Source: Candidatus Heimdallarchaeota archaeon
Lineage (GTDB): Archaea; Asgardarchaeota; Heimdallarchaeia; JABLTI01
Reading direction: 5' to 3'
Assembly (NCBI GenBank): GCA_030614005.1
Contig: JAUWKS010000069.1
Coordinates: 1 to 16,534, forward strand
Length of the DNA stretch: 16,534 bases
Positions within the stretch are counted from its first letter, which is position 1, and each line of letters starts with the position of its first letter. The notes below the pieces were generated by a model. It saw nothing but the letters and a program-made list of their open reading frames with translations. It made no database searches and was not told where the DNA came from. The translations under genes were made by a program, and so were the position numbers. Of the stretch, positions 3,373 through 16,007 are shown one piece after another.

Positions 3373-3786
3373 CTAAACTGATTTGACACTTGTTCGAGCA
3401 CCGCATGCTTCACAAACAAGAAAGTTTATTCGATCTTCTCTTATCAATACTGTATCTGGTTTTCCACATTCAGGACAGATAACATATTCTTTGATATAAC
3501 GATTGAAGAGGTCAATCATTGTTCCTCGAAAGTGCTTGCCTGAAAAGACTGCTCTTTGTCCTTCAATATTTGCTGAAGTAGCTAATTCTTTTGTAATGAA
3601 TTTTAATACATGGTTTTCATCACGTTGTAAAGCAGTAACTATTTGGTGCCAGTTTTTTACGAATGTGCGGTTGCCTTGAATATCTGCATCTGGTTTTGGG
3701 GGTTCAAAACGTGATTTTTCAAATATTTTTTCTGGGATTTGTTCACGAGCGCGTTTCAATAAATCCTTATAATTTTGATTTGACAT
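3373..3786 (-). CDS. eif2b: Translation initiation factor 2 beta subunit (aIF-2beta)
   Basis: RFEPP, GNRTF, KELAT, YIKEYVICPECGKPDT and C-terminal CEACGA zinc ribbon; 137 aa. Confidence 0.96.
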   Translation of the reverse strand: MSNQNYKDLLKRAREQIPEKIFEKSRFEPPKPDADIQGNRTFVKNWHQIVTALQRDENHVLKFITKELATSANIEGQRAVFSGKHFRGTMIDLFNRYIKEYVICPECGKPDTVLIREDRINFLVCEACGARTSVKSV

Positions 3787-3809
3787 AAAGCTACTTCTCT
3801 AACAAGTAA

Positions 3810-3824
3810 ATATTAAACTTTTTC
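3810..3824 (-). promoter_or_regulatory. Candidate archaeal BRE-TATA promoter of the aIF-2beta/DUF424/nmd3 unit
   Basis: Minus strand reads GAAAAAG-TTTAATAT; the TATA-like element lies 24-31 nt upstream of the ATG at 3786. Confidence 0.45.
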
Positions 3825-3913
3825 ACTTTTCCCTATTAAGGTTTACAGAAATACCTCACTCTATGCCGAAAAAACCAAAAAGGAACGTTCAAATATCAAT
3901 TCGTGTTTCGCTC

Positions 3914-4705
3914 ATGACTGTAGAATTTGGTATCATTGGTGGTTCTGGCTTTTACTCTATTTCTTCAAAAGGTGTTGAAGAGAATATTGAGACCCCGTTT
4001 GGAACTGTCGCAGTAAATATTTTCGATATAAATGATAGAAAAGTTGCTTTTATTACTCGACATGGATTAAAACACAGCATTCCTCCCCATTTAGTTAACT
4101 ATCGAGCAAATATATTCGCTTTGCATTCAATAGGTGTGAAACAAATAATTACCTCAAGTGCTGTTGGTTCTATGAAAGAGGAGATATTTCCTGGTAGCTT
4201 TGTTATACCCGATCAGTTCATAGATTTCACTATTGGGAGACCAAAAACATTCTTCGTAGATAATTTTGAAGTGAAATTGAACAATGGTTCAATACGAAAA
4301 GGTGTTGTTCACGTCGATTTAAGTGAACCCTACTGCCCTCATTTACGAGACGAATTGTTCATACAATCGAAAAAAATTGCTAAAAATGCTTTCAATAATG
4401 GTGTGTATGTTTGCACTGAAGGTCCAAGATTTGAAACCCCTGCTGAAATTAGTGCTTTCAAAATATTAGGGGGAACGTTAGTAGGGATGACTTCTGTTTC
4501 TGAATGTGTTCTTGCCCGAGAACTAGGTATTTGTTATTCTACTATTTGCTTGGTTACTAATTTTGCTGCAGGAATGCAAGAAAAGATTTCTACAGAAGAA
4601 GTATTCGCAGTATTCAAATCAAAAGTACTTGAACTCGAAGAAATAATTGTAAATACAATAGCTAATCTTGAAATTTCAGCTAAAAATTGTTCATGTGATA
4701 AGTAA
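3914..4705 (+). CDS. mtnP: MtnP/PNP2-family nucleoside phosphorylase, probably 6-oxopurine or methylthioinosine specific
   Basis: GIIGGSG, RHG, NYRANI, PDQFIDFT, EGPRFETPAE and VGMT. VTNFAAG has Asn where MTAP has VTDYD. The ATG at 3914 (MTVEFGIIGGSG) fits the family N-terminus better than 3863. Confidence 0.88.
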   Translation: MTVEFGIIGGSGFYSISSKGVEENIETPFGTVAVNIFDINDRKVAFITRHGLKHSIPPHLVNYRANIFALHSIGVKQIITSSAVGSMKEEIFPGSFVIPDQFIDFTIGRPKTFFVDNFEVKLNNGSIRKGVVHVDLSEPYCPHLRDELFIQSKKIAKNAFNNGVYVCTEGPRFETPAEISAFKILGGTLVGMTSVSECVLARELGICYSTICLVTNFAAGMQEKISTEEVFAVFKSKVLELEEIIVNTIANLEISAKNCSCDK

Positions 4706-4744
4706 AAAAATCACAACTCAAAATGAAAAAAAGAGACAATTTTG

Positions 4745-4765
4745 AGCATTTTTCTATGCTTTTTT
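4745..4765 (+). terminator. Possible terminator after the phosphorylase gene
   Basis: AGCAT-ttttct-ATGCT 5-bp stem running into a T-tract, 40 nt after the stop. Confidence 0.3.
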
Positions 4766-4799
4766 GATAGAAGTAATAATTATATACCATATTGCGAAT

Positions 4800-4818
4800 A
4801 ATAGTTGAATAAACTATT
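4800..4818. promoter_or_regulatory. Palindrome AATAGTT-N5-AACTATT, candidate transcription-factor site upstream of operon 1
   Basis: Perfect 7-bp inverted repeat about 45 nt upstream of the TATA-like box. The AT-rich context makes chance occurrence possible. Confidence 0.25.
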
Positions 4819-4864
4819 TTGTAAAAAATGGATAATTTACTCTTGTAAGTTAAACAAAATTTGG

Positions 4865-4874
4865 TATATATAAA
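4865..4874 (+). promoter_or_regulatory. TATA-box candidate for operon 1
   Basis: TATATATAAA 20-30 nt upstream of ATG 4895; GGGTGA SD-like sequence at 4883-4888. Confidence 0.4.
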
Positions 4875-4894
4875 ATGTCCAAGGGTGAACGGAG

Positions 4895-5743
4895 ATGTAC
4901 AGTTACGTATCACTAAAAGTTGATTGCCCTCTTTGCGGGAAATCTTTAATGGATTCTGAAGTGCATGTAGATGACATTCCGAGTATTAAATTAAATATAT
5001 CCGAGAATGGTGAACGAGGTACGATAAACTTAAGCTCGTTCTATGGGAGTTATAATTATGAATGTGATATTGACATTCATGATGAATTAATCTATCAATT
5101 CTATTGTCCACACTGTATTGAAAATCTTAATTCTGAAGAAGAAAACTGTGACGTATGTTCTTCACAAGCAGTTACTTTGAAAATTAGAGAAGGTGGAGAA
5201 GTAAGGTTTTGTCCAAGAGCAGGTTGTAAAAATCACAATGTGGAATTTGTTGATCTTTCAAATGTTCTAAATTACTTAAAACAGAATATTGAGAAACCAG
5301 AGATTATTGAAATAAATAGCGCCGAAGAAAAAGCTCTCCAAAAAGAGTTAATTAGAAGCGGCACTTTCTTACGAATATACTGCCCTCATTGTAAAAAGAG
5401 TTTAGTCGAGAAAAATTCAGTCATGTTCAAAATTGTAAACCAAAAAAATGAGAAAGGTTATTTGACATTGAGCCCCTATCTGAACGTTTTTGCAGAGAAA
5501 TCTACAATCTTCGTTCCAAATGGTGCTGTTGCAAGTGATATCCTGTGTCCATTCTGTGAAAAATCATTGGTAGATCCAGAAGATTTATGCCAAGAATGTA
5601 AATCACCTACAGTAAATGTCAATGTTGCTGCTGTAAGAAAAATGATTGATTTTCATTTCTGTTCAATGAAAGGCTGCCATTGGCATAGTCTTAGTCAAGA
5701 AGATTTGCATCACGTTTTGTTGGAAGATAGTCTCAGTTGGTAA
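4895..5743 (+). CDS. Cys-rich hypothetical protein A, tandem duplication of an 8-Cys/1-His metal-binding domain
   Basis: 282 aa with two repeats of CxxC-x~50-CxxC-x10-CxxC-x17/20-Cx4Cx2H (C11-H114 and C163-H264). SD present; colinear paralog at 12428-13288. Confidence 0.9.
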   Translation: MYSYVSLKVDCPLCGKSLMDSEVHVDDIPSIKLNISENGERGTINLSSFYGSYNYECDIDIHDELIYQFYCPHCIENLNSEEENCDVCSSQAVTLKIREGGEVRFCPRAGCKNHNVEFVDLSNVLNYLKQNIEKPEIIEINSAEEKALQKELIRSGTFLRIYCPHCKKSLVEKNSVMFKIVNQKNEKGYLTLSPYLNVFAEKSTIFVPNGAVASDILCPFCEKSLVDPEDLCQECKSPTVNVNVAAVRKMIDFHFCSMKGCHWHSLSQEDLHHVLLEDSLSW

Positions 5744-5825
5744 AAAGGAACCAAAAGATAAGATAAGTGTCTACTAACAACGATTGAATTTATAGAAAAA
5801 ACATTGTTAAAGAGGAATTTTAAAA

Positions 5826-6365
5826 ATGACTATTGAAAGTAATAAAATTTCCACTCAAAGTTTTAAGCTCACTAGCTCTGCAATAAAAAGTATCACTAAA
5901 ATATTAGAGCATAATGATCACGACCCAAGAAATCTAATACAAATTTTACAGGAACTACAAGACGAATTTCATTATCTACCAGAACCAATCATTTCCTATA
6001 TTGCAAAACAACTGAAAATTTCAGAACATCACATTTTTGGAGTGGCTACTTTTTATTCTCAGTTCAAATTTATTGAACCGGGTAAACATATAATACGGGT
6101 TTGTATGGGGACTGCATGTCATGTAATGGGTGCTCAATCTTTATTGGATAAATTATCTCGAGAGCTTAAGATTATCTCTGGGGAAACCACGAAAGATGGT
6201 TTATTCAGTTTAGAAAGTGTGTACTGCTTAGGATGTTGTGCTTTAGCCCCTGTAATGGTTATTGACGATGAAGTCTTTGGAAGTATGACTGCTGCTAAAG
6301 TAAATAGAACTCTGAGAAAATATCAGAAACAGAACTCTGGTAATAAAGGGAGGAATAAGAAGTGA
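5826..6365 (+). CDS. nuoE: NuoE/HydC-like [2Fe-2S] subunit
   Basis: LIQILQELQ...YLP, GVATFYSQF, CMGTACH...CLGCCALAP (Cx4C...Cx3C); GAGGA SD at 5812-5816. Confidence 0.93.
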   Translation: MTIESNKISTQSFKLTSSAIKSITKILEHNDHDPRNLIQILQELQDEFHYLPEPIISYIAKQLKISEHHIFGVATFYSQFKFIEPGKHIIRVCMGTACHVMGAQSLLDKLSRELKIISGETTKDGLFSLESVYCLGCCALAPVMVIDDEVFGSMTAAKVNRTLRKYQKQNSGNKGRNKK

Positions 6366-8239
6366 TAGATTTTGATACGATGGTAAAGAAGGCAAAAGCT
6401 TCTTGGAATTCATTACATGATCAAAAGAAACCTGTGATTTTTGCTGGTGCAGCTTCTTGCGGACGAGCAGCTGGCATTTTACCAGTTATAGAACAACTAA
6501 AGGAACTTTCCAAAAAAATCCCTCTTGATATTATTGAAGTTGGTTGTATTGGTCCTTGCTATTTAGAACCTATTATCGGCATTCAGATAAAAGGAGAACC
6601 AACAATTCTCTATGCAAATGTTCAACCGATTCAGGCACAAGAATTAGTTGAGAATTATCTCGTTAAGAACGATCCTCAACCAGATAAAGCAATTGGAACA
6701 ATTGGAGAAGGTAAAATAGAAGGCATTCAATCATTTTGGGAACATCCAATGATCAAGGATCAAGTACGTATCGTTTTGAAAAATTGCGGAATAATCGATC
6801 CTGCAAACATTAATCATTATTTGGCAATGGATGGTTATCAAGGCCTAAAGCAAGCATTAGCAATGAAACCTGAAGATGTCATTGAGAAAGTGCAAGAATC
6901 TGGCTTAAGAGGGCGAGGTGGTGCAGGATTCCCCACTGGTTTGAAATGGAAGTTCACACGTTCCGAAAAGGAACCTGAAAAATACATTATTTGCAATGCA
7001 GACGAAGGTGACCCTGGTGCATTTATGAATCGTTCCTTAATAGAAGGCGACCCACATGCAGTTCTAGAAGGTATGGTGATTGGCGCTTATGCAATAGGAG
7101 CAAGTACAGGTTATGTCTATTGTCGAGCAGAATATCCATTAGCTATTGATCGATTTGAGAAAGCTATTGCTGCTATGAAAAAACATGGTTTATTGGGTGA
7201 GAATATACTAAATAGTGGTTTTTCATTTGATATTCAAATAAAGAAAGGTGCGGGTGCGTTCGTTTGTGGAGAAGAAACAGCATTAATTGCTTCAATAGAA
7301 GGAGAAAGAGGTATGCCAAGACAAAAACCACCCTATCCATCACAGGAAGGTGTCTGGGGTAAACCAACTGTTATTAACAACGTGGAAACGCTGGGAACCG
7401 TACCGGTTATTTTACGTGAAAAATCATCTTGGTATACTAAATATGGAACTAAGCAATCAAAAGGGACGAAAACATTCTCATTAGTTGGTAAGGTGAAACG
7501 CACTGGATTAATTGAGGTTCCTCTTGGCACAACATTGCGCAAAGTAATTTTTGATATAGGTGGAGGCATCAAAGAAGATAAGGGTTTCAAAGCCATTCAA
7601 GTAGGTGGTCCCTCCGGAGGAACAATCCCGTCTGCGTTTATAGATGAAACACTTGATTATGAAGAATTGACAAAGCTAGGAGCAATTATGGGTTCAGGTG
7701 GGGTAGTCGTTATTGATGAGGACACTTGTGTTGTTGATTTAGCAAAATATTTCCTGCAATTCATTCAAGCAGAATCTTGTGGGAAATGCGTTCCATGTCG
7801 TGTTGGAAATAAACAATTGCTTGATTTATTAGTAAAAATATCAAAAGGATTAGGAAATATCGATGATTTTGAACTACTTGAAGAGCTAGCTTTTACCATT
7901 TCACAAGGATCATTATGTGGTTTGGGAAAAACAGCACCAAATCCTGTTATCACTACTTTAACTTATTTCAGAGACGAATACAAAGCACATGTAATAGATA
8001 AAATATGCCCAGCAAAAGTTTGCAAAGACCTATTTCTATACCAAGTGGATGCTGAAACTTGTATCGGTTGCGAAATCTGCAGGAAACGATGTCCTGTGGG
8101 AGCTATTACCGGGGAAAAGAAACAACCCCACGTAATAGATTTTGAAAAATGCATTAAATGTGATGTGTGTTCAACGAATTGTCCCGCAAAAGCAATTCGT
8201 AAAATAGACAAGGTGAGTGTTAAAATTGTTAGTAATTAA
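6362..8239 (+). CDS. nuoF: NuoF/HydB-like FMN/NADH-binding subunit of the electron-bifurcating (HydB) architecture
   Basis: N-terminal thioredoxin-like Fe-S domain (SCG...GCIGPC), GLRGRGGAGFPTGLKW, CNADEGDPGAFM, GAGAFVCGEET, ESCGKCVPCR...SLCG, HVIDKICPAKVC and a C-terminal 2x[4Fe-4S] domain (CIGCEICRKRCP, CIKCDVCSTNCP). GTG start overlaps the upstream TGA; GGGAGG SD. Confidence 0.93.
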   Translation: MIDFDTMVKKAKASWNSLHDQKKPVIFAGAASCGRAAGILPVIEQLKELSKKIPLDIIEVGCIGPCYLEPIIGIQIKGEPTILYANVQPIQAQELVENYLVKNDPQPDKAIGTIGEGKIEGIQSFWEHPMIKDQVRIVLKNCGIIDPANINHYLAMDGYQGLKQALAMKPEDVIEKVQESGLRGRGGAGFPTGLKWKFTRSEKEPEKYIICNADEGDPGAFMNRSLIEGDPHAVLEGMVIGAYAIGASTGYVYCRAEYPLAIDRFEKAIAAMKKHGLLGENILNSGFSFDIQIKKGAGAFVCGEETALIASIEGERGMPRQKPPYPSQEGVWGKPTVINNVETLGTVPVILREKSSWYTKYGTKQSKGTKTFSLVGKVKRTGLIEVPLGTTLRKVIFDIGGGIKEDKGFKAIQVGGPSGGTIPSAFIDETLDYEELTKLGAIMGSGGVVVIDEDTCVVDLAKYFLQFIQAESCGKCVPCRVGNKQLLDLLVKISKGLGNIDDFELLEELAFTISQGSLCGLGKTAPNPVITTLTYFRDEYKAHVIDKICPAKVCKDLFLYQVDAETCIGCEICRKRCPVGAITGEKKQPHVIDFEKCIKCDVCSTNCPAKAIRKIDKVSVKIVSN

Positions 8240-9794
8240 TGGTAACCAAGTTCCCTACGAAGAAGGTAAAACTATATTAGAAATCGCTCGAGAGAACGAT
8301 ATCTACATTCCAACACTTTGCGCTCATGAACGATTGCCTTCTTTTGGTGCATGTCGTATGTGTATGGTGAAAGTGCATGGTAATAAAGGGTTCATGAATG
8401 CTTGCACAACCAAAGTAAAAGATGGAATGGTAGTCACAACAGAAAGCCTCGAGATTAAGAGATTACGACGTTCAATATTTGAGCTTATACTATCCGAGCA
8501 TCCGAGTAGCTGTATGATGTGCGCGCAAGCAGAACATTGTGATAAATTCAATTCGGGTATTATGAAAGCTGGAGTAATAACGGGTTGCAATACGTGCCCA
8601 AATAAAGAGACGTGTGAACTACGAAAAATTAGTGATGCATTGAACTTTAAAACAATAAGGTTCCCAATGTTTTACAAGCATCTACCAATAGAACGAAATG
8701 ACCCATTTTTTGATCGCGATTATAATCTATGTATCCATTGTGGGCGCTGTGTAAGAGTTTGCCAAGATGTAGAAGGTGCATCAATATTGGTGTTTACTCA
8801 CAGAGGACATGATACAAAGGTTGGTACTTCTTTTGAAAAACCACACATAGAAACTGATTGCAAGTTTTGCGGGCAATGTGTTGATGTATGCCCTACTGGA
8901 GCATTATCGGCCAGAAATCAGAAGTGGTATGAGACCCCCGACGAACAAGTGAGTACAACCTGTCTGTTGTGTGATAAAGGGTGTAGGTTCCAGATTGACG
9001 TTAAATGGGGAAGAATGGTTGGGATGAGACCTGATCCGGAATACAAAACTCTTGAGACGGGAATATGTGTCAAAGGAAGATTTTGTCTGCCAGTTTTACT
9101 AAACAATATGGATCGTTTAAGGTTCCCAAGAATTCGACGGAATTTCAAACTATATCCAACAAATTGGGATGAAGCTGCTGCAAAGGTGGCGGAGATATTT
9201 GAAAATTATCCACCAAGCAAAATAGCATTATATATATCTCCATTTCTCATTGATGAAGCAGATTATCTATTTACGAAAATTGCATCGGATTTGGAAATAA
9301 CAAATATCTTTCGAAGTAAAGAGGATTTAACTAATATAAACAAAAAAGGAATAAAAGTGCTCTATACAACAGAAGGACTGCCAAATCTTGACAAGTATAA
9401 GTCATTAGAGAAAATTATCCTACAAGAAGTATTTTCTGCAGATGGACATGATTTTGCTGACGTAATTTTACCTGCAGCAGCATTCACTGAAGAAACGGGA
9501 ACAATAACCACTAATCATGGAATAATGACTGTCGAAAAAGTTGTGAAAGCACCAGACCTAGCTCTAGAAGATTGGAAGATTGTAGCAAAAATAGCTCAAG
9601 AATTGGATCTTTCAGGTTTCAAATTTATAGAAACAAGTGAAATTCAAGGTGAAATGAAACGCCTCGGAATTAAAGGAAAAACTCGGGGCGTCGAAGAACA
9701 TTATTTGAAATACCGAGGAACAGCAATTGCCGACAAAGTACCGGATTTCAAAATTTTGATCGAAGCTCGAAAAGAACGAGACAAGCTGTGGTGA
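8217..9794 (+). CDS. NuoG/HydA/FdhA-like multi-Fe-S subunit with a collapsed molybdopterin-type domain and no H-cluster (non-catalytic)
   Basis: [2Fe-2S] (IPTLC...GACRMC...NAC), His-ligated cluster HPSSCMMC, 2x[4Fe-4S] (CIHCGRCVRVC, CKFCGQCVDVCP), FS0-type CLLCDKGC...CVKG and ADVILPAAAFTEETGT. Only 525 aa. The start may be the TTG at 8226, given AAGGTGA at 8210-8216. Confidence 0.85.
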   Translation: MLKLLVINGNQVPYEEGKTILEIARENDIYIPTLCAHERLPSFGACRMCMVKVHGNKGFMNACTTKVKDGMVVTTESLEIKRLRRSIFELILSEHPSSCMMCAQAEHCDKFNSGIMKAGVITGCNTCPNKETCELRKISDALNFKTIRFPMFYKHLPIERNDPFFDRDYNLCIHCGRCVRVCQDVEGASILVFTHRGHDTKVGTSFEKPHIETDCKFCGQCVDVCPTGALSARNQKWYETPDEQVSTTCLLCDKGCRFQIDVKWGRMVGMRPDPEYKTLETGICVKGRFCLPVLLNNMDRLRFPRIRRNFKLYPTNWDEAAAKVAEIFENYPPSKIALYISPFLIDEADYLFTKIASDLEITNIFRSKEDLTNINKKGIKVLYTTEGLPNLDKYKSLEKIILQEVFSADGHDFADVILPAAAFTEETGTITTNHGIMTVEKVVKAPDLALEDWKIVAKIAQELDLSGFKFIETSEIQGEMKRLGIKGKTRGVEEHYLKYRGTAIADKVPDFKILIEARKERDKLW

Positions 9795-9799
9795 TGTAA

Positions 9800-10657
9800 A
9801 TGTATGAAATTGTAGAAAAATATGAAGAAGTTCCAAATGTTCATCGTTTAGTTGTAAGAGAACCAAATATAGCCGCAAAAGCTCAACCAGGACAATTTGC
9901 AATTTTAATGGCGGACGAACAAAGTGAACGTGTGCCTATTTCAATAGTTGACACCAAAGATGATACATTTACAATGTTTATACTTGAACTAGGGATATCC
10001 TCTGCAAAAATCGTAAATATGAAAGAAGGAGATACGCTAGAAGCTGTTACTGGACCTCTTGGTATGCCTGCAGATTTAGGTAAATACGGTAGGGTTGTTC
10101 TTGGTGGAGGATGCTATGGCATTGGTGCTATCTATCCACTTGCGAGAGCTTTGAAAGAGCTTGGAAATGAAGTAGTAACGATAATAGAAGCACGAAGTGA
10201 TTATCTACTATATTTCCAAGAAGAATTGAAAGCAGTTTCGGATGAGTTTTTTGTTGCAACTTCTGATGGCACAGAAGGAACAAATGGACATGTACAAGAT
10301 GTTTTAGTAAAATTGATCCGAGATGGAGAAAGATTTGATCATGCAAAATTCATCGGATGTACGTATATGATGATGAATTGTTCGCATATTACATCACCAT
10401 ATAGGATCCCAACAAAAGTAGCATTGAACACAATAATGTTAGATGGTACAGGCATGTGCGGTTGTTGTCGAGTTTCTGTTGAAGGTGAAACAAAATTCGC
10501 TTGCGTTGATGGCCCAGAATTTGATGGGCATCATGTTGATTGGGATGAATTAATGAAACGAAAATCCTCCTACCTAATGGAGGAAATGCTTGCTTATCAA
10601 ACAGCACCCCATACATGCAAAGCATTAGAAAAAGCTTATTCTGGTGATTCAAAATGA
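9800..10657 (+). CDS. nfnA: NfnA (NfnS/SudB/PyrK-like) small FAD/[2Fe-2S] subunit, divergent copy 1
   Basis: PGQF, ERVPISIVD, GPLG and DGTGMCGCCRV...FACVDGPEFDG; GGTGA SD overlaps the upstream stop. Confidence 0.9.
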   Translation: MYEIVEKYEEVPNVHRLVVREPNIAAKAQPGQFAILMADEQSERVPISIVDTKDDTFTMFILELGISSAKIVNMKEGDTLEAVTGPLGMPADLGKYGRVVLGGGCYGIGAIYPLARALKELGNEVVTIIEARSDYLLYFQEELKAVSDEFFVATSDGTEGTNGHVQDVLVKLIRDGERFDHAKFIGCTYMMMNCSHITSPYRIPTKVALNTIMLDGTGMCGCCRVSVEGETKFACVDGPEFDGHHVDWDELMKRKSSYLMEEMLAYQTAPHTCKALEKAYSGDSK

Positions 10658-12147
10658 GCAAAAAGAAATCCCCCGCCCCTAAAAAAGAAAATGCAAAGCA
10701 ATCACCAAAAGATAAACCTGCTGAAAAACCTAAACGACCTCCAAGACCACCTCGCACAAAAATGCCAGAGCAACCCCCTGATATTCGAATAAAAAATTTT
10801 GTTGAGGTTCCATATGGTCTAACCCCTGAAGAAGCACAACTTGAAGCTGCTAGATGTATACAATGCAAACGACCGAAATGCGTAGAGGGTTGTCCTGTAA
10901 GTGTCCAAATACCTGAATTCATAGCTCTCATAAAAGACGGGCATTTTGCAGAAGCAGCTAGTAAGATAAAAGAAACAAATGTTTTACCTGCTGTTTGTGG
11001 TCGAGTTTGTCCGCAAGAAACACAATGTGAAGAAACCTGTATTTTAGGTCGTCGTGGTGAACCCGTGGCAATCGGTTATTTGGAAAGATTTTGCGCAGAT
11101 TATGAAAGGTTGGGTGGACATATTAAACTCCCAAAGAAGAAGAGACCCAATGATAAGAAAGTAGCAATTGTCGGCTCAGGACCCGCAGGTTTGACTGTAG
11201 CTGGTGATCTCTCATTGCTCGGTTACAAATTAACAATTTTTGAAGCATTTCACAAAGGTGGTGGAGTACTCGTTTATGGTATACCCGAGTTTAGATTGCC
11301 TAAGGAAATTGTTGAAACCGAAATAAACTATTTGGAACGTCTTGGTGTTGAGATTAAATACAATCACGTTATTGGTATGTGTAAATCTATAAACGAACTT
11401 CTGACAAAAGATGGTTTTGACGCCGTATTTATTGGTGTTGGTGCAGGACTACCGAGATTTTTGAACATTCCAGGGGAGAATCTAAATGGAGTATATTCAG
11501 CAAATGAATACCTTACTCGTTCGAATTTGATGAAAGCTTATCTTTATCCTACGTACAATACACCTATTATGAAAGGAAGAAAAGTAACTGTTGTAGGTGG
11601 AGGAAATGTGGCTATGGATTGTGCTCGAACCGCACTGAGACTCGGTTCAGATAAGGTAATGTTGGTCTATCGTAGAGCGAGAGAGCAAATGCCTGCAAGA
11701 GCTGAGGAAGTACATCATGCTGCTGAGGAGGGCATTGATTTTAGATTGCTTTCAAATCCCGTTGAAATTATTGGTGATGACACCGGAGTAGTGAAGCGAA
11801 TCAAATGCCAAAAATATCAGTTAGGAGAACCAGATGATTCTGGTAGAAGAAGACCTTTACCTATTGAAGGAGAATATTTTGAATTAGAAACTGATTTGGT
11901 GATCATTGCAATAGGGAATAATGCAAACCCCCTCATAAAAGCTACAACTCCCGATATTGAAACGAATAAATGGGGTAATATTATCGTAGATGAATTTGGT
12001 CGTACAAATAAAAATTTCGTCTATGCCGCGGGAGATATTGTCACAGGTGGAGCAACAGTTATCTCAGCAATGGGCGGTGGGAGAAAAGCTGCAACAGGTA
12101 TTCATAGAGATCTAATGGGAATAAAGGATGAAGATGTCCAAGATTAA
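10654..12147 (+). CDS. nfnB: NfnB (NfnL/SudA/GltD-like) large subunit, copy 1, with Lys/Pro-rich N-terminal extension
   Basis: RCIQCKRPKCVEGCP, CGRVCPQETQCEETC, GSGPAG, YGIPEFRLPK, GGGNVAMD, VYRR (NADP-type) and GDIVTGGATVISAM. ATGA overlap with nfnA. Confidence 0.93.
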   Translation: MSKKKSPAPKKENAKQSPKDKPAEKPKRPPRPPRTKMPEQPPDIRIKNFVEVPYGLTPEEAQLEAARCIQCKRPKCVEGCPVSVQIPEFIALIKDGHFAEAASKIKETNVLPAVCGRVCPQETQCEETCILGRRGEPVAIGYLERFCADYERLGGHIKLPKKKRPNDKKVAIVGSGPAGLTVAGDLSLLGYKLTIFEAFHKGGGVLVYGIPEFRLPKEIVETEINYLERLGVEIKYNHVIGMCKSINELLTKDGFDAVFIGVGAGLPRFLNIPGENLNGVYSANEYLTRSNLMKAYLYPTYNTPIMKGRKVTVVGGGNVAMDCARTALRLGSDKVMLVYRRAREQMPARAEEVHHAAEEGIDFRLLSNPVEIIGDDTGVVKRIKCQKYQLGEPDDSGRRRPLPIEGEYFELETDLVIIAIGNNANPLIKATTPDIETNKWGNIIVDEFGRTNKNFVYAAGDIVTGGATVISAMGGGRKAATGIHRDLMGIKDEDVQD

Positions 12148-12150
12148 ATG

Positions 12151-12189
12151 ATTGTAGATGCAAAAAGTTTCTACAATTGTTATTTTTTT
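12151..12189 (+). terminator. Hairpin plus T-tract ending operon 1
   Basis: ATTGTAGA (12151-12158) pairs with TCTACAAT (12170-12177) around an 11-nt loop, followed by T7 at 12183-12189, just after the nfnB stop. Confidence 0.6.
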
Positions 12190-12427
12190 ATCACTTTTAG
12201 CTTATCCATTATTGAGTAGCTAATAATCTGAGATTAAATTAAAATGTTTTTAATATTAACTTGTCATTGGATACTTAAACCAATTAAATTACTATTTATT
12301 TAGACACATACATATTATTTTTATAGTATAACCGTGAAGATAATTTGAATTGATAATCTCAACATCTCTCTCAAAAAAGAGGTCCAATCTAAATGCTCGT
12401 TTTAATAAAAATTAAAGGAGATTGAAA

Positions 12428-13288
12428 ATGCACGACTTTATAGCACTAAAACTAAATTGTCCGCTCTGTGAAAAATCACTAATGGACACTCAAACATTAA
12501 TCGATAATCTACCCGGAGTAAAATTAAATATATCCTTTGATGATCAACAAGGAGTGATTCATCTGAGCGCTATTTATGGTAGCTATAATTATACTACCAA
12601 CATCAAAATTCCTTTAGGTAAAGAAGCTACTTTCTCTTGTCCCCATTGCAAAGAACCAATTGTTTCTGAAATAAAATGCGAGGTATGTTCTGCTCATTCT
12701 GTTCCATTGAAAATCGAAGATAATGGAATTGTTAGAATATGTTCTCGTGCCGGTTGTAAAAACCATTATGTGGAATTTGAAGATTTGTCCCATGCTCTAG
12801 AACACTTCTATGTGTATTTTGATTATGGTGATGCAAGCAGAGTAAAGAAACCATTAACAGAATCCAATGCGACACCAGATGCTGATAAAGAAATAGTGAA
12901 ATCAGGTACATTCCTTAGAACATATTGCCCTCATTGCGAAGACAGCCTCTATAAAAATAGAGCAATTGAATTTAAGATAACTGGCAAAGATGGAGAAGAA
13001 GGTATATTACAATTAAGTCCCTTTCTCAATGTGTTTACAAACGAATCAACTTTTTACATTCCCGAGGGAGAACCTGTAAAGAATGTTAGATGTCCTCATT
13101 GCGATGAAAGTCTTTTGCGTAAAGGTGAGGATTGTCCAGAATGTGGAGAAGCAATTGTAAGTGTATCTGTTGCTGCCCTATCAAAAATAATTGATTTCTA
13201 TTTTTGTTCAAAGAAAGGGTGTCATTGGCATGGAATGAGTCAAGAAGATATAGATGATATAATCATTGAGGATAGCAGTGAGTGGTAA
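12428..13288 (+). CDS. Cys-rich hypothetical protein B, paralog of protein A (two 8-Cys/1-His domains)
   Basis: Same ligand pattern twice and colinear with 4895-5743. AAAGGAG at 12414-12420 favours the ATG at 12428 over the TTG at 12422. Confidence 0.9.
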   Translation: MHDFIALKLNCPLCEKSLMDTQTLIDNLPGVKLNISFDDQQGVIHLSAIYGSYNYTTNIKIPLGKEATFSCPHCKEPIVSEIKCEVCSAHSVPLKIEDNGIVRICSRAGCKNHYVEFEDLSHALEHFYVYFDYGDASRVKKPLTESNATPDADKEIVKSGTFLRTYCPHCEDSLYKNRAIEFKITGKDGEEGILQLSPFLNVFTNESTFYIPEGEPVKNVRCPHCDESLLRKGEDCPECGEAIVSVSVAALSKIIDFYFCSKKGCHWHGMSQEDIDDIIIEDSSEW

Positions 13289-13291
13289 TAA

Positions 13292-14119
13292 ATGCATCAA
13301 ATAATTCGTAAACAAGAAATGGCAAAAGGTACAATTGTACGATTTGATGTTCGTGCTCCAGAAATAGCAAAAAAAGCAAAACCTGGACAATTTGTGATTG
13401 TAAGACTTACGGAAACTGGTGAAAGAATACCACTAACAATTGCAGATAAGGACAGCTTTGAAGGGTATATAACACTCATTTTTCAGGTAGTTGGAAAAAC
13501 AACTGCAATAATGAGAACGTTAAATGAAGGTGACGCAATAAAGGACCTTGTTGGGCCACTAGGAAAACCAGCAGATATACAAAAAGTTGGCACAGTAATA
13601 ATGGTCGGTGGTGGAACTGGTGTCGCAATATTACATCACATTGCGAAAGCATTCAAAGAAGCAGGTAATACTGTGATTAGCATTATCGGTGCACGCGAAA
13701 AAGACTTGTTAATCCTTGAAAACGAAATGAGAATAATTTCCGATGAACTGGTTATAACTACTGATGATGGAAGCTATGGACAACTTGGTTTTGTTACAGA
13801 GCCCTTACAAAGATATCTAGATGAACGTTATGACATTAAGGAAGTATATGCTATTGGTCCAATTCCAATGATGAAATTCGTTTGCCGATTGACAAAGAAA
13901 TATAATGTACCAACAATGGTCAGCCTTAATCCAATAATGATTGATGGCACCGGCATGTGCGGTGGTTGTCGTGTGACTGTTGGAAACGAAACAAAGTTCT
14001 GCTGTGTTGATGGTCCTGACTTCAATGGGCATGAAGTAGACTTTGATGAACTAACAAAACGAAATTCTATGTATCTTAAGGAAGAAAAAGATGCACTATT
14101 ATTTTCAATAAGAGGTTAA
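13292..14119 (+). CDS. nfnA: NfnA small subunit, canonical copy 2
   Basis: PGQFVIVR, ERIPLTIAD, GPLG, VGGGTG, IIGAR, TTDDG, IGPIPMM and SLNPIMIDGTGMCGGCRV...CVDGPDF. Confidence 0.94.
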   Translation: MHQIIRKQEMAKGTIVRFDVRAPEIAKKAKPGQFVIVRLTETGERIPLTIADKDSFEGYITLIFQVVGKTTAIMRTLNEGDAIKDLVGPLGKPADIQKVGTVIMVGGGTGVAILHHIAKAFKEAGNTVISIIGAREKDLLILENEMRIISDELVITTDDGSYGQLGFVTEPLQRYLDERYDIKEVYAIGPIPMMKFVCRLTKKYNVPTMVSLNPIMIDGTGMCGGCRVTVGNETKFCCVDGPDFNGHEVDFDELTKRNSMYLKEEKDALLFSIRG

Positions 14120-14123
14120 ACCA

Positions 14124-16007
14124 ATGGTAGATTATGATGTAAAATATCTAAAATTTAAAACCTACCTGAACACCTATTGTCCGCACTGCAGAAATAGCTT
14201 TAACAGAAAAGAAAAAGAAATGGACAAACTCAAGTTCATAGGTGTCTATAAAGGTGAAGATTTTGAATTAACAATAAGCGCTTATCTAGACGTTTTTGAG
14301 GCTCAAGCTTCAATACCTTTGAAAGAAGGAATGATTCTTGAAGATTGCAAATGCCCTCATTGCAAACAAAGTCTTGTGACCTCTGAAAAGAAATGTGGAG
14401 AATGCGGCTCTGCTGTAGGTGAAGTAATTATCAGTGCCTTTTCAAAACTAATTCCTTTCTTCACTTGTTTGAAATATGGTTGTGAATGGCATGGCTTAAC
14501 TAAAGCGGATGAACGAAGAATCAAACTAAAAATTCCTAGACAAGAAATGCCCGAACAAGATCAAGTACTAAGAATTCATAATTTCAATGAGGTACCCTAT
14601 GGACTAACCACTGAATTAGCTTTATTAGAAGCTGGTAGATGCTTACAATGCAAGCAACCAAAATGTGTTGAAGGTTGTCCAGTAAATATTGATATCCCTG
14701 AATTTATTCGATTAATCGCTGAAGAGAAAATTGAAGATGCAGTAATGAAAGTAAAAGAAACAAACCTTTTTCCAGCAATTTGTGGTCGAGTCTGTCCACA
14801 AGAGAATCAGTGTGAAGAACTTTGTATTTTAGGAAAGCGAGATTATCCCGTTGCTATTGGTCATCTTGAGAGATTTATTGCTGATTATGAACGTCGTATG
14901 GATTTCAGGAAATTACCCAGAATTGAAGCGAAAAACAATAAACGAATAGCTGTTGTCGGGTCTGGACCTGCTGGTTTAACCGTTGCAGCTGATTTAATTC
15001 AATTGGGTTACAGCATAACAATTTATGAGGCACTTCACGAACCTGGTGGGGTACTCGTTTACGGCATCCCTGAATTTCGATTGCCAAAATCAATTGTTCA
15101 TTATGAAATTGAGTTCTTAAAGAGTCTTGGATGTCGAATTGAAACAAATCATGTGATTGGTTATATCTATAGCATTGCTGAATTGCTTGAAAATTACGAT
15201 GCAGTATTTTTAGGTGTCGGTGCAGGTTTACCACGATTTATGAATATTACAGGTGAAAATCTGTGCAATGTGTTTTCTGCTAATGAATATCTAACCCGAA
15301 TGAATCTCATGAAAGCGTACAAATTTCCCGAATATGACACTCCAATGCCCGAAGGTAATGATATTGTTGTGATTGGTGGTGGAAACGTAGCAATGGATTG
15401 TGCTAGAAATGCAAAACGAACCGGAGCAATAAATGTTACCGTTGTCTATCGTCGATCGAGAAAGGAATTACCTGCAAGAAATGAAGAAATTCGTCATGCA
15501 GAAGAAGAAGGCATTCATTTCAAGTTGCTAACGAATCCAGTTAGATTTGTAGGTGATGATCGAAATTGGTTGAAAGGAATAGAATGTGTTCTGATGGAAC
15601 TTGGTGAACCTGATGATTCCGGGAGAAGAAGACCTATCCCAATTGAGAATTCAAACATAACTATACCCTGTGATATAGCAATTGTTGCTATTGGTAATAG
15701 ACCAAATCCTATTCTCTTCAATACGACACCCAATTTACAAGGCAATAAATGGGGTTGTATAGAAGTTAATCAAGAAACAATGGAAACATCGATAGAGTAT
15801 GTTTATGCTGGAGGAGATATTGTTACTGGAGCAGCAACAGTAATCTCTGCTATGGGTCAAGGACGTATCGCAGCAAATGCAATGCATAAAAAATTGTCTA
15901 GACCTGCGAGTAAAACAAAACCCAAGCAAAAACCTGAAAAAGCTGTAGCGACTACTCCAAAACCCAAACCAAAAGCTAAATCTACATCTACCCGAAAGAA
16001 AATTTAG
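14124..16007 (+). CDS. nfnB: NfnB large subunit, copy 2, fused to an N-terminal 8-Cys/1-His domain and carrying a Lys/Pro-rich C-terminal tail
   Basis: Residues 19-123 repeat the Cys-rich domain. From about residue 138 it has all NfnB motifs (RCLQCKQPKCVEGCP, CGRVCPQENQCEELC, GSGPAG, GIPEFRLPK, GGGNVAMD, VYRRS, GDIVTGAATV). Confidence 0.93.
   Translation: MVDYDVKYLKFKTYLNTYCPHCRNSFNRKEKEMDKLKFIGVYKGEDFELTISAYLDVFEAQASIPLKEGMILEDCKCPHCKQSLVTSEKKCGECGSAVGEVIISAFSKLIPFFTCLKYGCEWHGLTKADERRIKLKIPRQEMPEQDQVLRIHNFNEVPYGLTTELALLEAGRCLQCKQPKCVEGCPVNIDIPEFIRLIAEEKIEDAVMKVKETNLFPAICGRVCPQENQCEELCILGKRDYPVAIGHLERFIADYERRMDFRKLPRIEAKNNKRIAVVGSGPAGLTVAADLIQLGYSITIYEALHEPGGVLVYGIPEFRLPKSIVHYEIEFLKSLGCRIETNHVIGYIYSIAELLENYDAVFLGVGAGLPRFMNITGENLCNVFSANEYLTRMNLMKAYKFPEYDTPMPEGNDIVVIGGGNVAMDCARNAKRTGAINVTVVYRRSRKELPARNEEIRHAEEEGIHFKLLTNPVRFVGDDRNWLKGIECVLMELGEPDDSGRRRPIPIENSNITIPCDIAIVAIGNRPNPILFNTTPNLQGNKWGCIEVNQETMETSIEYVYAGGDIVTGAATVISAMGQGRIAANAMHKKLSRPASKTKPKQKPEKAVATTPKPKPKAKSTSTRKKI

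Follow-up and report, generated by a model that had tools for sequence, protein, structure and literature searches.

A probable Bfu-family flavoprotein complex with an NfnSL-type pair as extra subunits, encoded by one operon of a Heimdall archaeon

Introduction

NfnSL on the one hand, and the Bfu-type enzymes NfnABC and Stn on the other, are treated as unrelated, alternative solutions to the same reaction. NfnSL and NfnABC have been called unrelated, and the same is stated of NfnSL and the SL subunits of the known ABCSL enzymes (PMC12018979). In line with this, Stn has no NfnA homolog and Nfn no HydBC homolog (PMC10482914), and the Bfu catalogue holds Nfn only as a Type 1 ABC enzyme (PMC9304861). 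In the Type 2 and Type 3 Bfu enzymes, the bifurcating BC core and the separate catalytic subunits are connected by an empty BfuA, which serves as a plug (PMC12318220; PMC9304861). Here we analyse a contig of 16,534 nucleotides (nt) from Candidatus Heimdallarchaeota archaeon (assembly GCA_030614005.1, contig JAUWKS010000069.1; the whole stretch is called the window), in which a six-gene operon at positions 4895-12147 puts both kinds of enzyme in one predicted particle.

We propose that this operon probably encodes one soluble Fe-S flavoprotein complex, in which a Bfu-family enzyme has taken up a specialised NfnSL pair as extra subunits. The proposal follows from the coupled genes, the synteny, the permuted gene orders and the gene fusions, from family-specific motifs in the A subunit and its NfnA-like neighbour, from a predicted interface between these two, from the motifs of BfuB and of the NfnB-like subunit, and from the absence of formate dehydrogenase (FDH) and [FeFe] hydrogenase from the 90%-complete genome. 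A full-text literature search turned up no paper in which NfnSL subunits are described as part of a Bfu enzyme; a preprint on MK-D1 gives 'FdhA-HydBC' and NfnAB as separate items.

Results

The window is the whole of its contig, and the source genome has a size of 3.6 Mb and is 90% complete. The operon comprises six open reading frames (ORFs), all on the + strand, at the positions that an earlier annotation made from the letters alone (the sequence-only reading) had given. That reading described genes joined by overlapping or near-adjacent codons, and the junctions read as described. hydC and hydB share a GTGA overlap (6362-6365), hydB and hydA overlap by 23 nt (8217-8239; A could also start from a TTG at 8226), the stop of A at 9794 is separated by 5 nt from the start of the NfnA-like gene at 9800, and the NfnA-like and NfnB-like genes share an ATGA overlap (10654-10657). 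The gap of 82 nt between the first gene, which encodes a Cys-rich protein, and hydC is without a T-run, and the only two runs of six or more T inside the operon (8706 and 10247) are both intragenic. A scan for bacterial promoters and terminators is ill-suited to an archaeon and gave counts no higher than in shuffled sequence, so the intergenic DNA was read directly instead. A TATA-like box at 4866-4876 (+ strand), 20-29 nt before the first ATG, is a candidate archaeal promoter for the operon. After the last stop, a hairpin followed by a T7 run (12151-12189, + strand) likely ends the transcription unit, at the place where the sequence-only reading had put the first terminator. All sequencing runs listed as carrying the operon, or the A gene alone, are DNA runs, with no RNA run among them; those with the operon come from cold-seep and marine-sediment metagenomes.

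The first two Bfu genes encode the core. BfuC (HydC, NuoE-like; 5826-6365, + strand) is a thioredoxin-like [2Fe-2S] protein (PF01257, E 7e-50) with cysteines at C93, C98, C134 and C138. BfuB (HydB, NuoF-like; 6362-8239, + strand) was assigned from full-length PDB matches and Bfu signature motifs. At 715-735 bits, it matches over its full length the B subunits of C. saccharolyticus NfnABC (9bov), S. ovata Stn (8oh5), A. mobile NiFe-HydABCSL (7t2r) and T. sibiricus NfnABC (9n5u), so that in the BfuB and BfuC cores the window is like the Type 1 Bfu enzymes Stn and NfnABC (8oh5, 9bov, 9n5u). The layout of BfuB runs from an N-terminal [2Fe-2S] site through the flavin mononucleotide (FMN)/NADH site, the B1 cluster and the B2 Cys/His site to a C-terminal 2x[4Fe-4S] domain, in which Pfam finds Fer4. 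The alignment to 9bov_B, 8oh5_B and 7t2r_B spans the N-terminal SCG...GCIGxC motif and both CxxCxxCxxxC motifs. These full-length alignments and motifs agree with the thioredoxin-like N-domain, the His/Cys motif and the C-terminal 2x[4Fe-4S] domain that had been noticed in the B subunit before.

The NADH/FMN motifs of BfuB are of the bifurcating type, DEGDPGAFMNR and GAGAFVCGE (with Phe), present in the window as ICNADEGDPGAFMNRS and KKGAGAFVCGEETALI. They fit the Bfu rows, not the non-bifurcating rows, of Suppl. Fig. 10 of PMC9304861, and are the motifs that separate bifurcating BfuB from NuoF, HoxF and FdsB. The B2 site of three Cys and one His is complete (C456, H543, C549 and C554; compared with Suppl. 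Fig. 9 of PMC9304861). Judged by its motifs, the window has a complete BfuBC core with all Bfu-specific signatures.

BfuA (8217-9794, + strand; Pfam, NCBIfam and PDB matches) is a short form of 525 amino acids (aa). It contains a 2Fe-2S domain, a NuoG-type domain, Fer4 clusters and a Molybdop_Fe4S4 domain, followed by only the last ~100 positions of the Molybdopterin profile (PF00384, profile positions 247-352). The ~200-280 residues that long relatives have in addition, the core of the Mo-domain, are deleted, and in the alignment with these relatives the catalytic Cys/Sec-His segment is absent. The H-cluster domain PF02906 was found neither in BfuA nor anywhere in the 90%-complete genome, and Pfam detects no Pyr_redox or Fer4_20 domain (GltD insert) in BfuA. 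The sequence-only reading had described an A subunit with neither an H-cluster nor a Mo/W site. Both are indeed absent, but the subunit is not bare: an A5-type cluster motif is still there, and so is a remnant of the Mo-domain scaffold. The ligand Cys and His residues of clusters A1-A5, including the Y-shaped A1-A4 set, are invariant in 81 sequences.

The best PDB matches of BfuA are 9bov_A and 8oh5_C, with homology on both sides of their GltD insert; 7t2r_A is also among the best. The window and Stn/NfnABC have in common a homologous BfuA, an NADPH module of the NfnB fold and a degenerate tail that resembles formate dehydrogenase. With enzymes of Types 2 and 3 (NiFe-HydABCSL, 7t2r; WorABCSL, 9mqx) the window shares the empty BfuA and the separately encoded extra subunits; unlike in these enzymes, the added subunits are themselves of a bifurcating-enzyme kind, that of NfnSL.

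BfuA residues 95-133 (8499-8615, + strand) form the predicted docking loop for the NfnA-like subunit. Here, an H-x3-C-x2-C-x5-C motif is followed by an extra C-x2-C-x5-C triad (C124, C127 and C133), and all seven His/Cys residues of the loop are unchanged in 81 of 81 A subunits, of both the short and the long form. By alignment, the extra triad is absent from R. capsulatus FdsA (6tg9_A), and the GltD domain of Stn and C. saccharolyticus NfnABC is inserted exactly at this point.

Nearly all of the long A relatives (750-920 aa) are without the catalytic Cys/Sec-His segment and were rejected as real formate dehydrogenases; a C-H motif occurs only in locus L099, and L052 has C-Y. The stand-alone short A subunits, that of the window included, make up one clade of 13 (SH-aLRT 96), nested among the long forms and common to Heimdall/Hod archaea and Desulfobacterota/Spirochaetota. 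Such a distribution suggests a single deletion and a later transfer between domains. The A subunit of L099 (Dehalococcoidales, positions 6580-9333) is the only one of 80 with an FDH-type catalytic segment, NNVDHCARLCH; this locus may encode a real FDH-Bfu-NfnSL enzyme and give a picture of the ancestral state.

The NfnA/NfnS-like subunit, here called S (9800-10657, + strand), is PyrK-like and matches T. maritima NfnA at E 1e-69. It shares with NfnSL (T. maritima, 4ylf; P. furiosus, 5jca) the ERxPxT strand that binds flavin adenine dinucleotide (FAD; ERVPIS in the window) and the Asp/Cys3 [2Fe-2S] motif (DGTGMCGCCR...CVDG). Its NAD(H) motifs are altered, to GGCYG at residues 103-107 (GGCYGIG) and GC at residues 186-187. 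GGC[YF]G[IL] together with GC is found in 65 of 65 NfnA proteins linked to Bfu genes, which brings in two new cysteines, C105 and C187 in window numbering. None of five free or crystallised NfnA proteins has them: NfnA2 of the window, two other free copies, T. maritima NfnA and P. furiosus NfnI all carry GGGxG and GP instead. Unlike NfnSL, then, every linked S has GGC[YF]G and GC in place of the NAD(H) motifs, and the linked S/L pair is always encoded with HydBC-type genes.

The altered motifs belong to the nucleotide-binding domain of the FNR-type fold (PMC6405883), and the rows that carry the S signature group in one clade (SH-aLRT 95) of a tree built from 144 NfnA domains. P. furiosus NfnII (5vj7), a paralog of NfnSL, has a small subunit with a changed NADH domain and shows no NAD+-dependent activity (PMC6405883). 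Unlike S, its small subunit keeps GP and has GAYTG rather than GGCYG, and as far as PMC6405883 says, it is not encoded with Bfu genes.

The last gene of the operon encodes a canonical NfnB/NfnL, here called L (10654-12147, + strand), which matches T. maritima NfnB over its full length with all cofactor motifs (E 2e-159), whereas the Stn/NfnABC GltD domains reach only 1e-88 to 1e-95. With motif definitions from PMC6405883 and an alignment to 4ylf_B and 5jca_L, we located RCx2Cx4Cx3CPV, GRVCPQExQCx3C, the Arg of IPEFRLP (R214) and VYRR at residues 68, 116, 210 and 338. Of 64 homologs, 62-64 retain the [4Fe-4S] motifs, the Glu-type proximal site, the flavin N5 Arg and the NADPH motif. At the proximal cluster, L is of the Glu type known from NfnL; NfnABC has the Lys type there. 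In the NfnB tree, free and linked copies are intermixed and the Stn-type GltD domain of the same genome lies outside, and by sequence L is an ordinary, unspecialised NfnB.

The sequence-only reading took the GltD-like part to be a separate NfnB with its own NfnA, and the matches to T. maritima NfnB and NfnA fit this. Its suggestion of a split Stn-like enzyme found no support. Similarity and tree rule out L as a split-off Stn GltD domain; the NADPH module of the window, unlike that of Stn/NfnABC, is a canonical NfnB with an NfnA-like subunit of its own, encoded just after A; and the predicted link to BfuA runs via S, of a kind absent from Stn, rather than via GltD clusters. At the N-terminus of L (10654-10770), as at the C-terminus of NfnB2 (15900-16007), there is a Lys/Pro-rich low-complexity tail.

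Contact between BfuA and S was modelled by complex structure prediction, with our own 30-row alignments in matched order and three controls. The A-S pair gave ipSAE values of 0.61, 0.60 and 0.61, against 0.00 for the best of the three controls. Among 80 solved complexes 58 attain this ipSAE mark, as do 2 among 110 mismatched pairs; because our own alignments were used, these counts apply only roughly. The runs have at least 67% of contacts in common, and the partner pLDDT is at least 80. The predicted interface places A residues 96-123, which span the His/Cys motif and the loop leading up to the extra triad, against S residues 132-136, 154-158 and 187-192, the nucleotide-domain motifs with the new Cys187 among them. 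In the model, the A loop plugs the former NAD(H) cleft of S. The solved structures that match S at E<=1e-20 are NfnSL-type small subunits only, and none of the PDB matches of A has an NfnA-like domain; a memorised solved A-S complex is therefore unlikely. Modelling of A with NfnA, which the sequence-only reading had put forward as a check, thus yielded a predicted contact. Together with the altered motifs, this predicted plug suggests that S no longer binds NAD(H).

The gene set is conserved far beyond this genome. An alignment of 14 short A subunits was used to fetch 80 loci from species-representative genomes, whose ORFs were labelled by BLAST against the window proteins; 79 loci have an A gene. 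These span more than 15 phyla, with Heimdall-, Hod-, Thor- and Promethearchaeota among the Asgard archaea, Thermoplasmatota, Bathyarchaeota and more than 12 bacterial phyla (among others Bacillota, Aminicenantota, Thermodesulfobacteriota, Bacteroidota, Planctomycetota, Nitrospirota and Chloroflexota). Where at least 2.6 kb lie downstream of A, S adjoins A in 55 of 55 loci and both S and L are present in 54. The NuoE-like (E) and NuoF-like (F) genes are upstream in 60 of the 62 loci with room there. Desulfobacterota have the same five genes in the order E-A-S-L-F. In four loci (L035, L051, L055 and L066), A and S are a single polypeptide with linkers of 10-18 aa, and in an exhaustive search with the window's S, 11 of the 24 best cluster representatives were A-NfnA fusions of 550-1080 aa. 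Conservation of the six-gene order, put forward earlier as a check, was found in part: the five-gene set is near-universal, whereas the sixth, Cys-rich gene is confined to close Heimdall relatives.

Some of these loci vary in BfuB. In L080 (Aminicenantes, positions 6844-9999) and L099 (positions 3433-6525), a GltD/NfnB-like domain with ~40% identity to NfnB replaces the C-terminal 2x[4Fe-4S] domain, and separate NfnA and NfnB genes are still there. In a Heimdall relative with 76% identity (L017, positions 8136-10007), the gene call breaks BfuB into two ORFs (443 and 147 aa), and in one record the gene is missing. A frameshift, an error in the assembly or a true split may lie behind this.

The genome was surveyed for other redox enzymes. 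No [FeFe] hydrogenase, FDH or other Mo-pterin protein was found in the 90%-complete genome. Four NiFe hydrogenase loci each include partner genes of their own: two are four-gene NAD(P)-type sets, one is an Mvh-Hdr set and one is a membrane complex. One further NiFe small/large pair lies at a contig end, with its neighbours beyond the contig. The refuting case named by the sequence-only reading, in which the HydABC-like proteins partner with a hydrogenase or FDH encoded elsewhere, thus found no fitting candidate: the 90%-complete genome has no H-cluster or other Mo-pterin protein, the four NiFe loci are self-partnered, and the contig-end pair was not judged.

On another contig (C20; locus L012, positions 7774-13049), the same genome encodes a fused trio of the Stn/NfnABC type, consisting of a NuoE-like protein, a NuoF-like protein and a 983-aa 2Fe2S-GltD-NuoG-like protein. 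Its BfuB has 522 aa and is ~100 residues shorter at the N-terminus than that of the window. A Glu/Leu/Phe/Val dehydrogenase gene lies ~3.5 kb upstream of the trio, and two ABC-transporter genes stand between them. The trio is followed, at positions 13287-16684, by bacillithiol-type genes in this Asgard genome (BshC, PIG-L deacetylase and a GT4 glycosyltransferase).

The first gene of the operon (4895-5743, + strand) encodes a Cys-rich protein of 282 aa with two repeats, each of 8 Cys and 1 His, recognised from its ORF and by comparison with a paralog. It has no Pfam or NCBIfam family above threshold. Its AlphaFold2 model is all-beta with a pLDDT of 78, and a PDB fold search gave no match at E<=0.001, the best weak rows being Zn-ribbon-rich proteins. 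The family is kept at 45-62% identity across many phyla, and its usual setting is a three-gene CysRich-NfnA-NfnB module, whose NfnB is long (~600 aa) with a fused Cys-rich repeat. The gene lies upstream of hydC only in close Heimdall relatives (loci L017, L018 and L104); the protein is a candidate accessory or sixth subunit, probably added in the Heimdall lineage.

A second module of this kind follows the operon (12422-16007, + strand; domain calls, paralog and motif comparison), with a Cys-rich paralog (12422-13288, 47% identical to the first), NfnA2 and NfnB2. NfnA2 has canonical NAD motifs, and NfnB2 carries one Cys-rich repeat fused to its N-terminus. For the paralog, the ATG at 12428, with AGGAG 8 nt upstream, is a likelier start than the TTG at 12422 of the ORF list. 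The three-gene module recurs in Cloacimonetes and other bacteria (loci L102 and L103). In the Heimdall relative L104, the module and the Bfu operon are in swapped order. The neighbouring genes in the window are archaeal in type by their domain calls (NMD3, DUF424 and aIF2-beta), and the closest homologs carry the label Heimdallarchaeota.

Discussion

The sequence-only reading had suggested one multi-subunit enzyme for NADH, NADPH and ferredoxin (Fd). This is now well supported by the synteny, the permuted orders, the A-S fusions, the A and S motifs and the predicted interface. In such a complex, BfuB and BfuC would form the usual FMN/Fe-S bifurcating core for NAD(H) and ferredoxin, and BfuA would be a catalytically empty wire. 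The FAD of NfnL would bind NADP(H), and NfnL would keep its own two-cluster ferredoxin branch, which may still serve ferredoxin. S would have dropped NAD(H) use. With its former nucleotide cleft docked on the BfuA His/Cys loop, its FAD and [2Fe-2S] would bridge the FAD of NfnL to the cluster chain of BfuA. Electrons would then run from NADPH to the NfnB FAD, through the [2Fe-2S] and FAD of S to the clusters of A, and on to the BfuBC core. We infer this path, and also the direction: the enzyme would tie the NADPH, NADH and ferredoxin pools, most likely working towards NADPH formation in vivo.

How many bifurcating sites such an enzyme would use is a separate matter. We only tentatively entertain two working sites in series, the NfnL FAD and the BfuBC FMN/Fe-S site, joined via the S FAD and an extra cluster in the BfuA loop, whose fourth ligand may come from an S-specific cysteine. 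At potentials (E') of -380 mV for NADPH, -280 mV for NADH and -500 mV for ferredoxin (PMC9304861), one working site gives a near-equilibrium Nfn/Stn stoichiometry. Two working sites give NADH + 6 Fd-red + 4 NADP+ -> 4 NADPH, with ~65 mV over eight electrons or ~-50 kJ. If two sites are active, the enzyme would, with this yield, generate NADPH almost irreversibly and with heavy use of ferredoxin, unlike either Nfn or Stn. Three Nfn-like systems in a single genome argue that they are not redundant.

It is possible, if somewhat doubtful, that the wiring is instead Stn-like, with one bifurcation site. Here, the S/L pair would be an NADPH dehydrogenase that feeds mid-potential electrons via BfuA to BfuBC, the net reaction would be that of Nfn/Stn (2 NADPH + NAD+ + 2 Fd-ox), and the ferredoxin branch of NfnL would be idle or structural. 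This is how Bfu enzymes generally work, with a third-substrate module that feeds BfuA (PMC9304861; PMC12318220), and its stoichiometry is near equilibrium at the potentials given above. The GltD domain of StnC is a precedent for an NfnB fold that has lost bifurcation (PMC10482914). However, L is indistinguishable from a bifurcating NfnB, with its motifs kept in nearly all homologs and free NfnBs nested among linked ones, and a fused Stn-type enzyme is already in the genome.

Less probably, and by analogy with P. furiosus NfnII, the complex would be real and its third substrate not NADP(H), with the S/L pair or the Cys-rich protein feeding another acceptor. Three Nfn-like systems in one genome suggest different jobs, and the Cys-rich protein is without a known function. 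Against another acceptor, L has a conserved FAD site and a conserved VYRR motif for NADPH binding, and it is BfuA itself that is predicted to fill the S cleft.

Two independent, co-transcribed enzymes, an ordinary NfnAB and a BfuABC with its catalytic partner (a NiFe hydrogenase or FDH) elsewhere, are very unlikely: adjacency alone is no proof of a complex, NiFe-HydABCSL, whose 7t2r_A is among the best matches, has just such an empty BfuA serving separate catalytic subunits, and one NiFe pair has its neighbours out of view, but A-S fusions are frequent, the family-specific motifs of S and A co-occur, the synteny is near-universal across domains with the gene set retained in permuted orders, an A-S interface is predicted where the controls give none, and the 90%-complete genome offers only self-partnered hydrogenase loci besides that pair, with no other Mo-pterin or H-cluster protein.

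Several points weigh against the proposed single complex. It is known here from genes, sequences and models. The A-S interface is predicted, and its score is model confidence rather than measured binding, and the loss of NAD(H) binding by S is read from motif changes and the predicted plug only. The two-site series reaction is far from equilibrium at textbook potentials, which leaves the physiological stoichiometry uncertain. In addition, the same genome holds a fused Stn-type NfnABC and a second NfnSL module, so that a third enzyme for the same pools calls for an explanation.

Taken together, we propose that the operon most likely encodes a Bfu enzyme with NfnSL-type subunits, an operon type that is found in hundreds of uncultured anaerobic species, including Asgard relatives of eukaryotes. 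The S signature (GGC[YF]G with GC) and the BfuA Cys triad provide simple markers for its annotation. If the operon indeed encodes one enzyme, it would represent a missing class in the Bfu catalogue and would alter metabolic reconstructions that now give 'NuoEFG', 'FdhA-HydBC' or plain NfnAB. It would also offer a natural test of coupling between two bifurcation sites. If both sites do work in series, the architecture would be an extant intermediate form linking NfnSL and NfnABC, at present described as unrelated.

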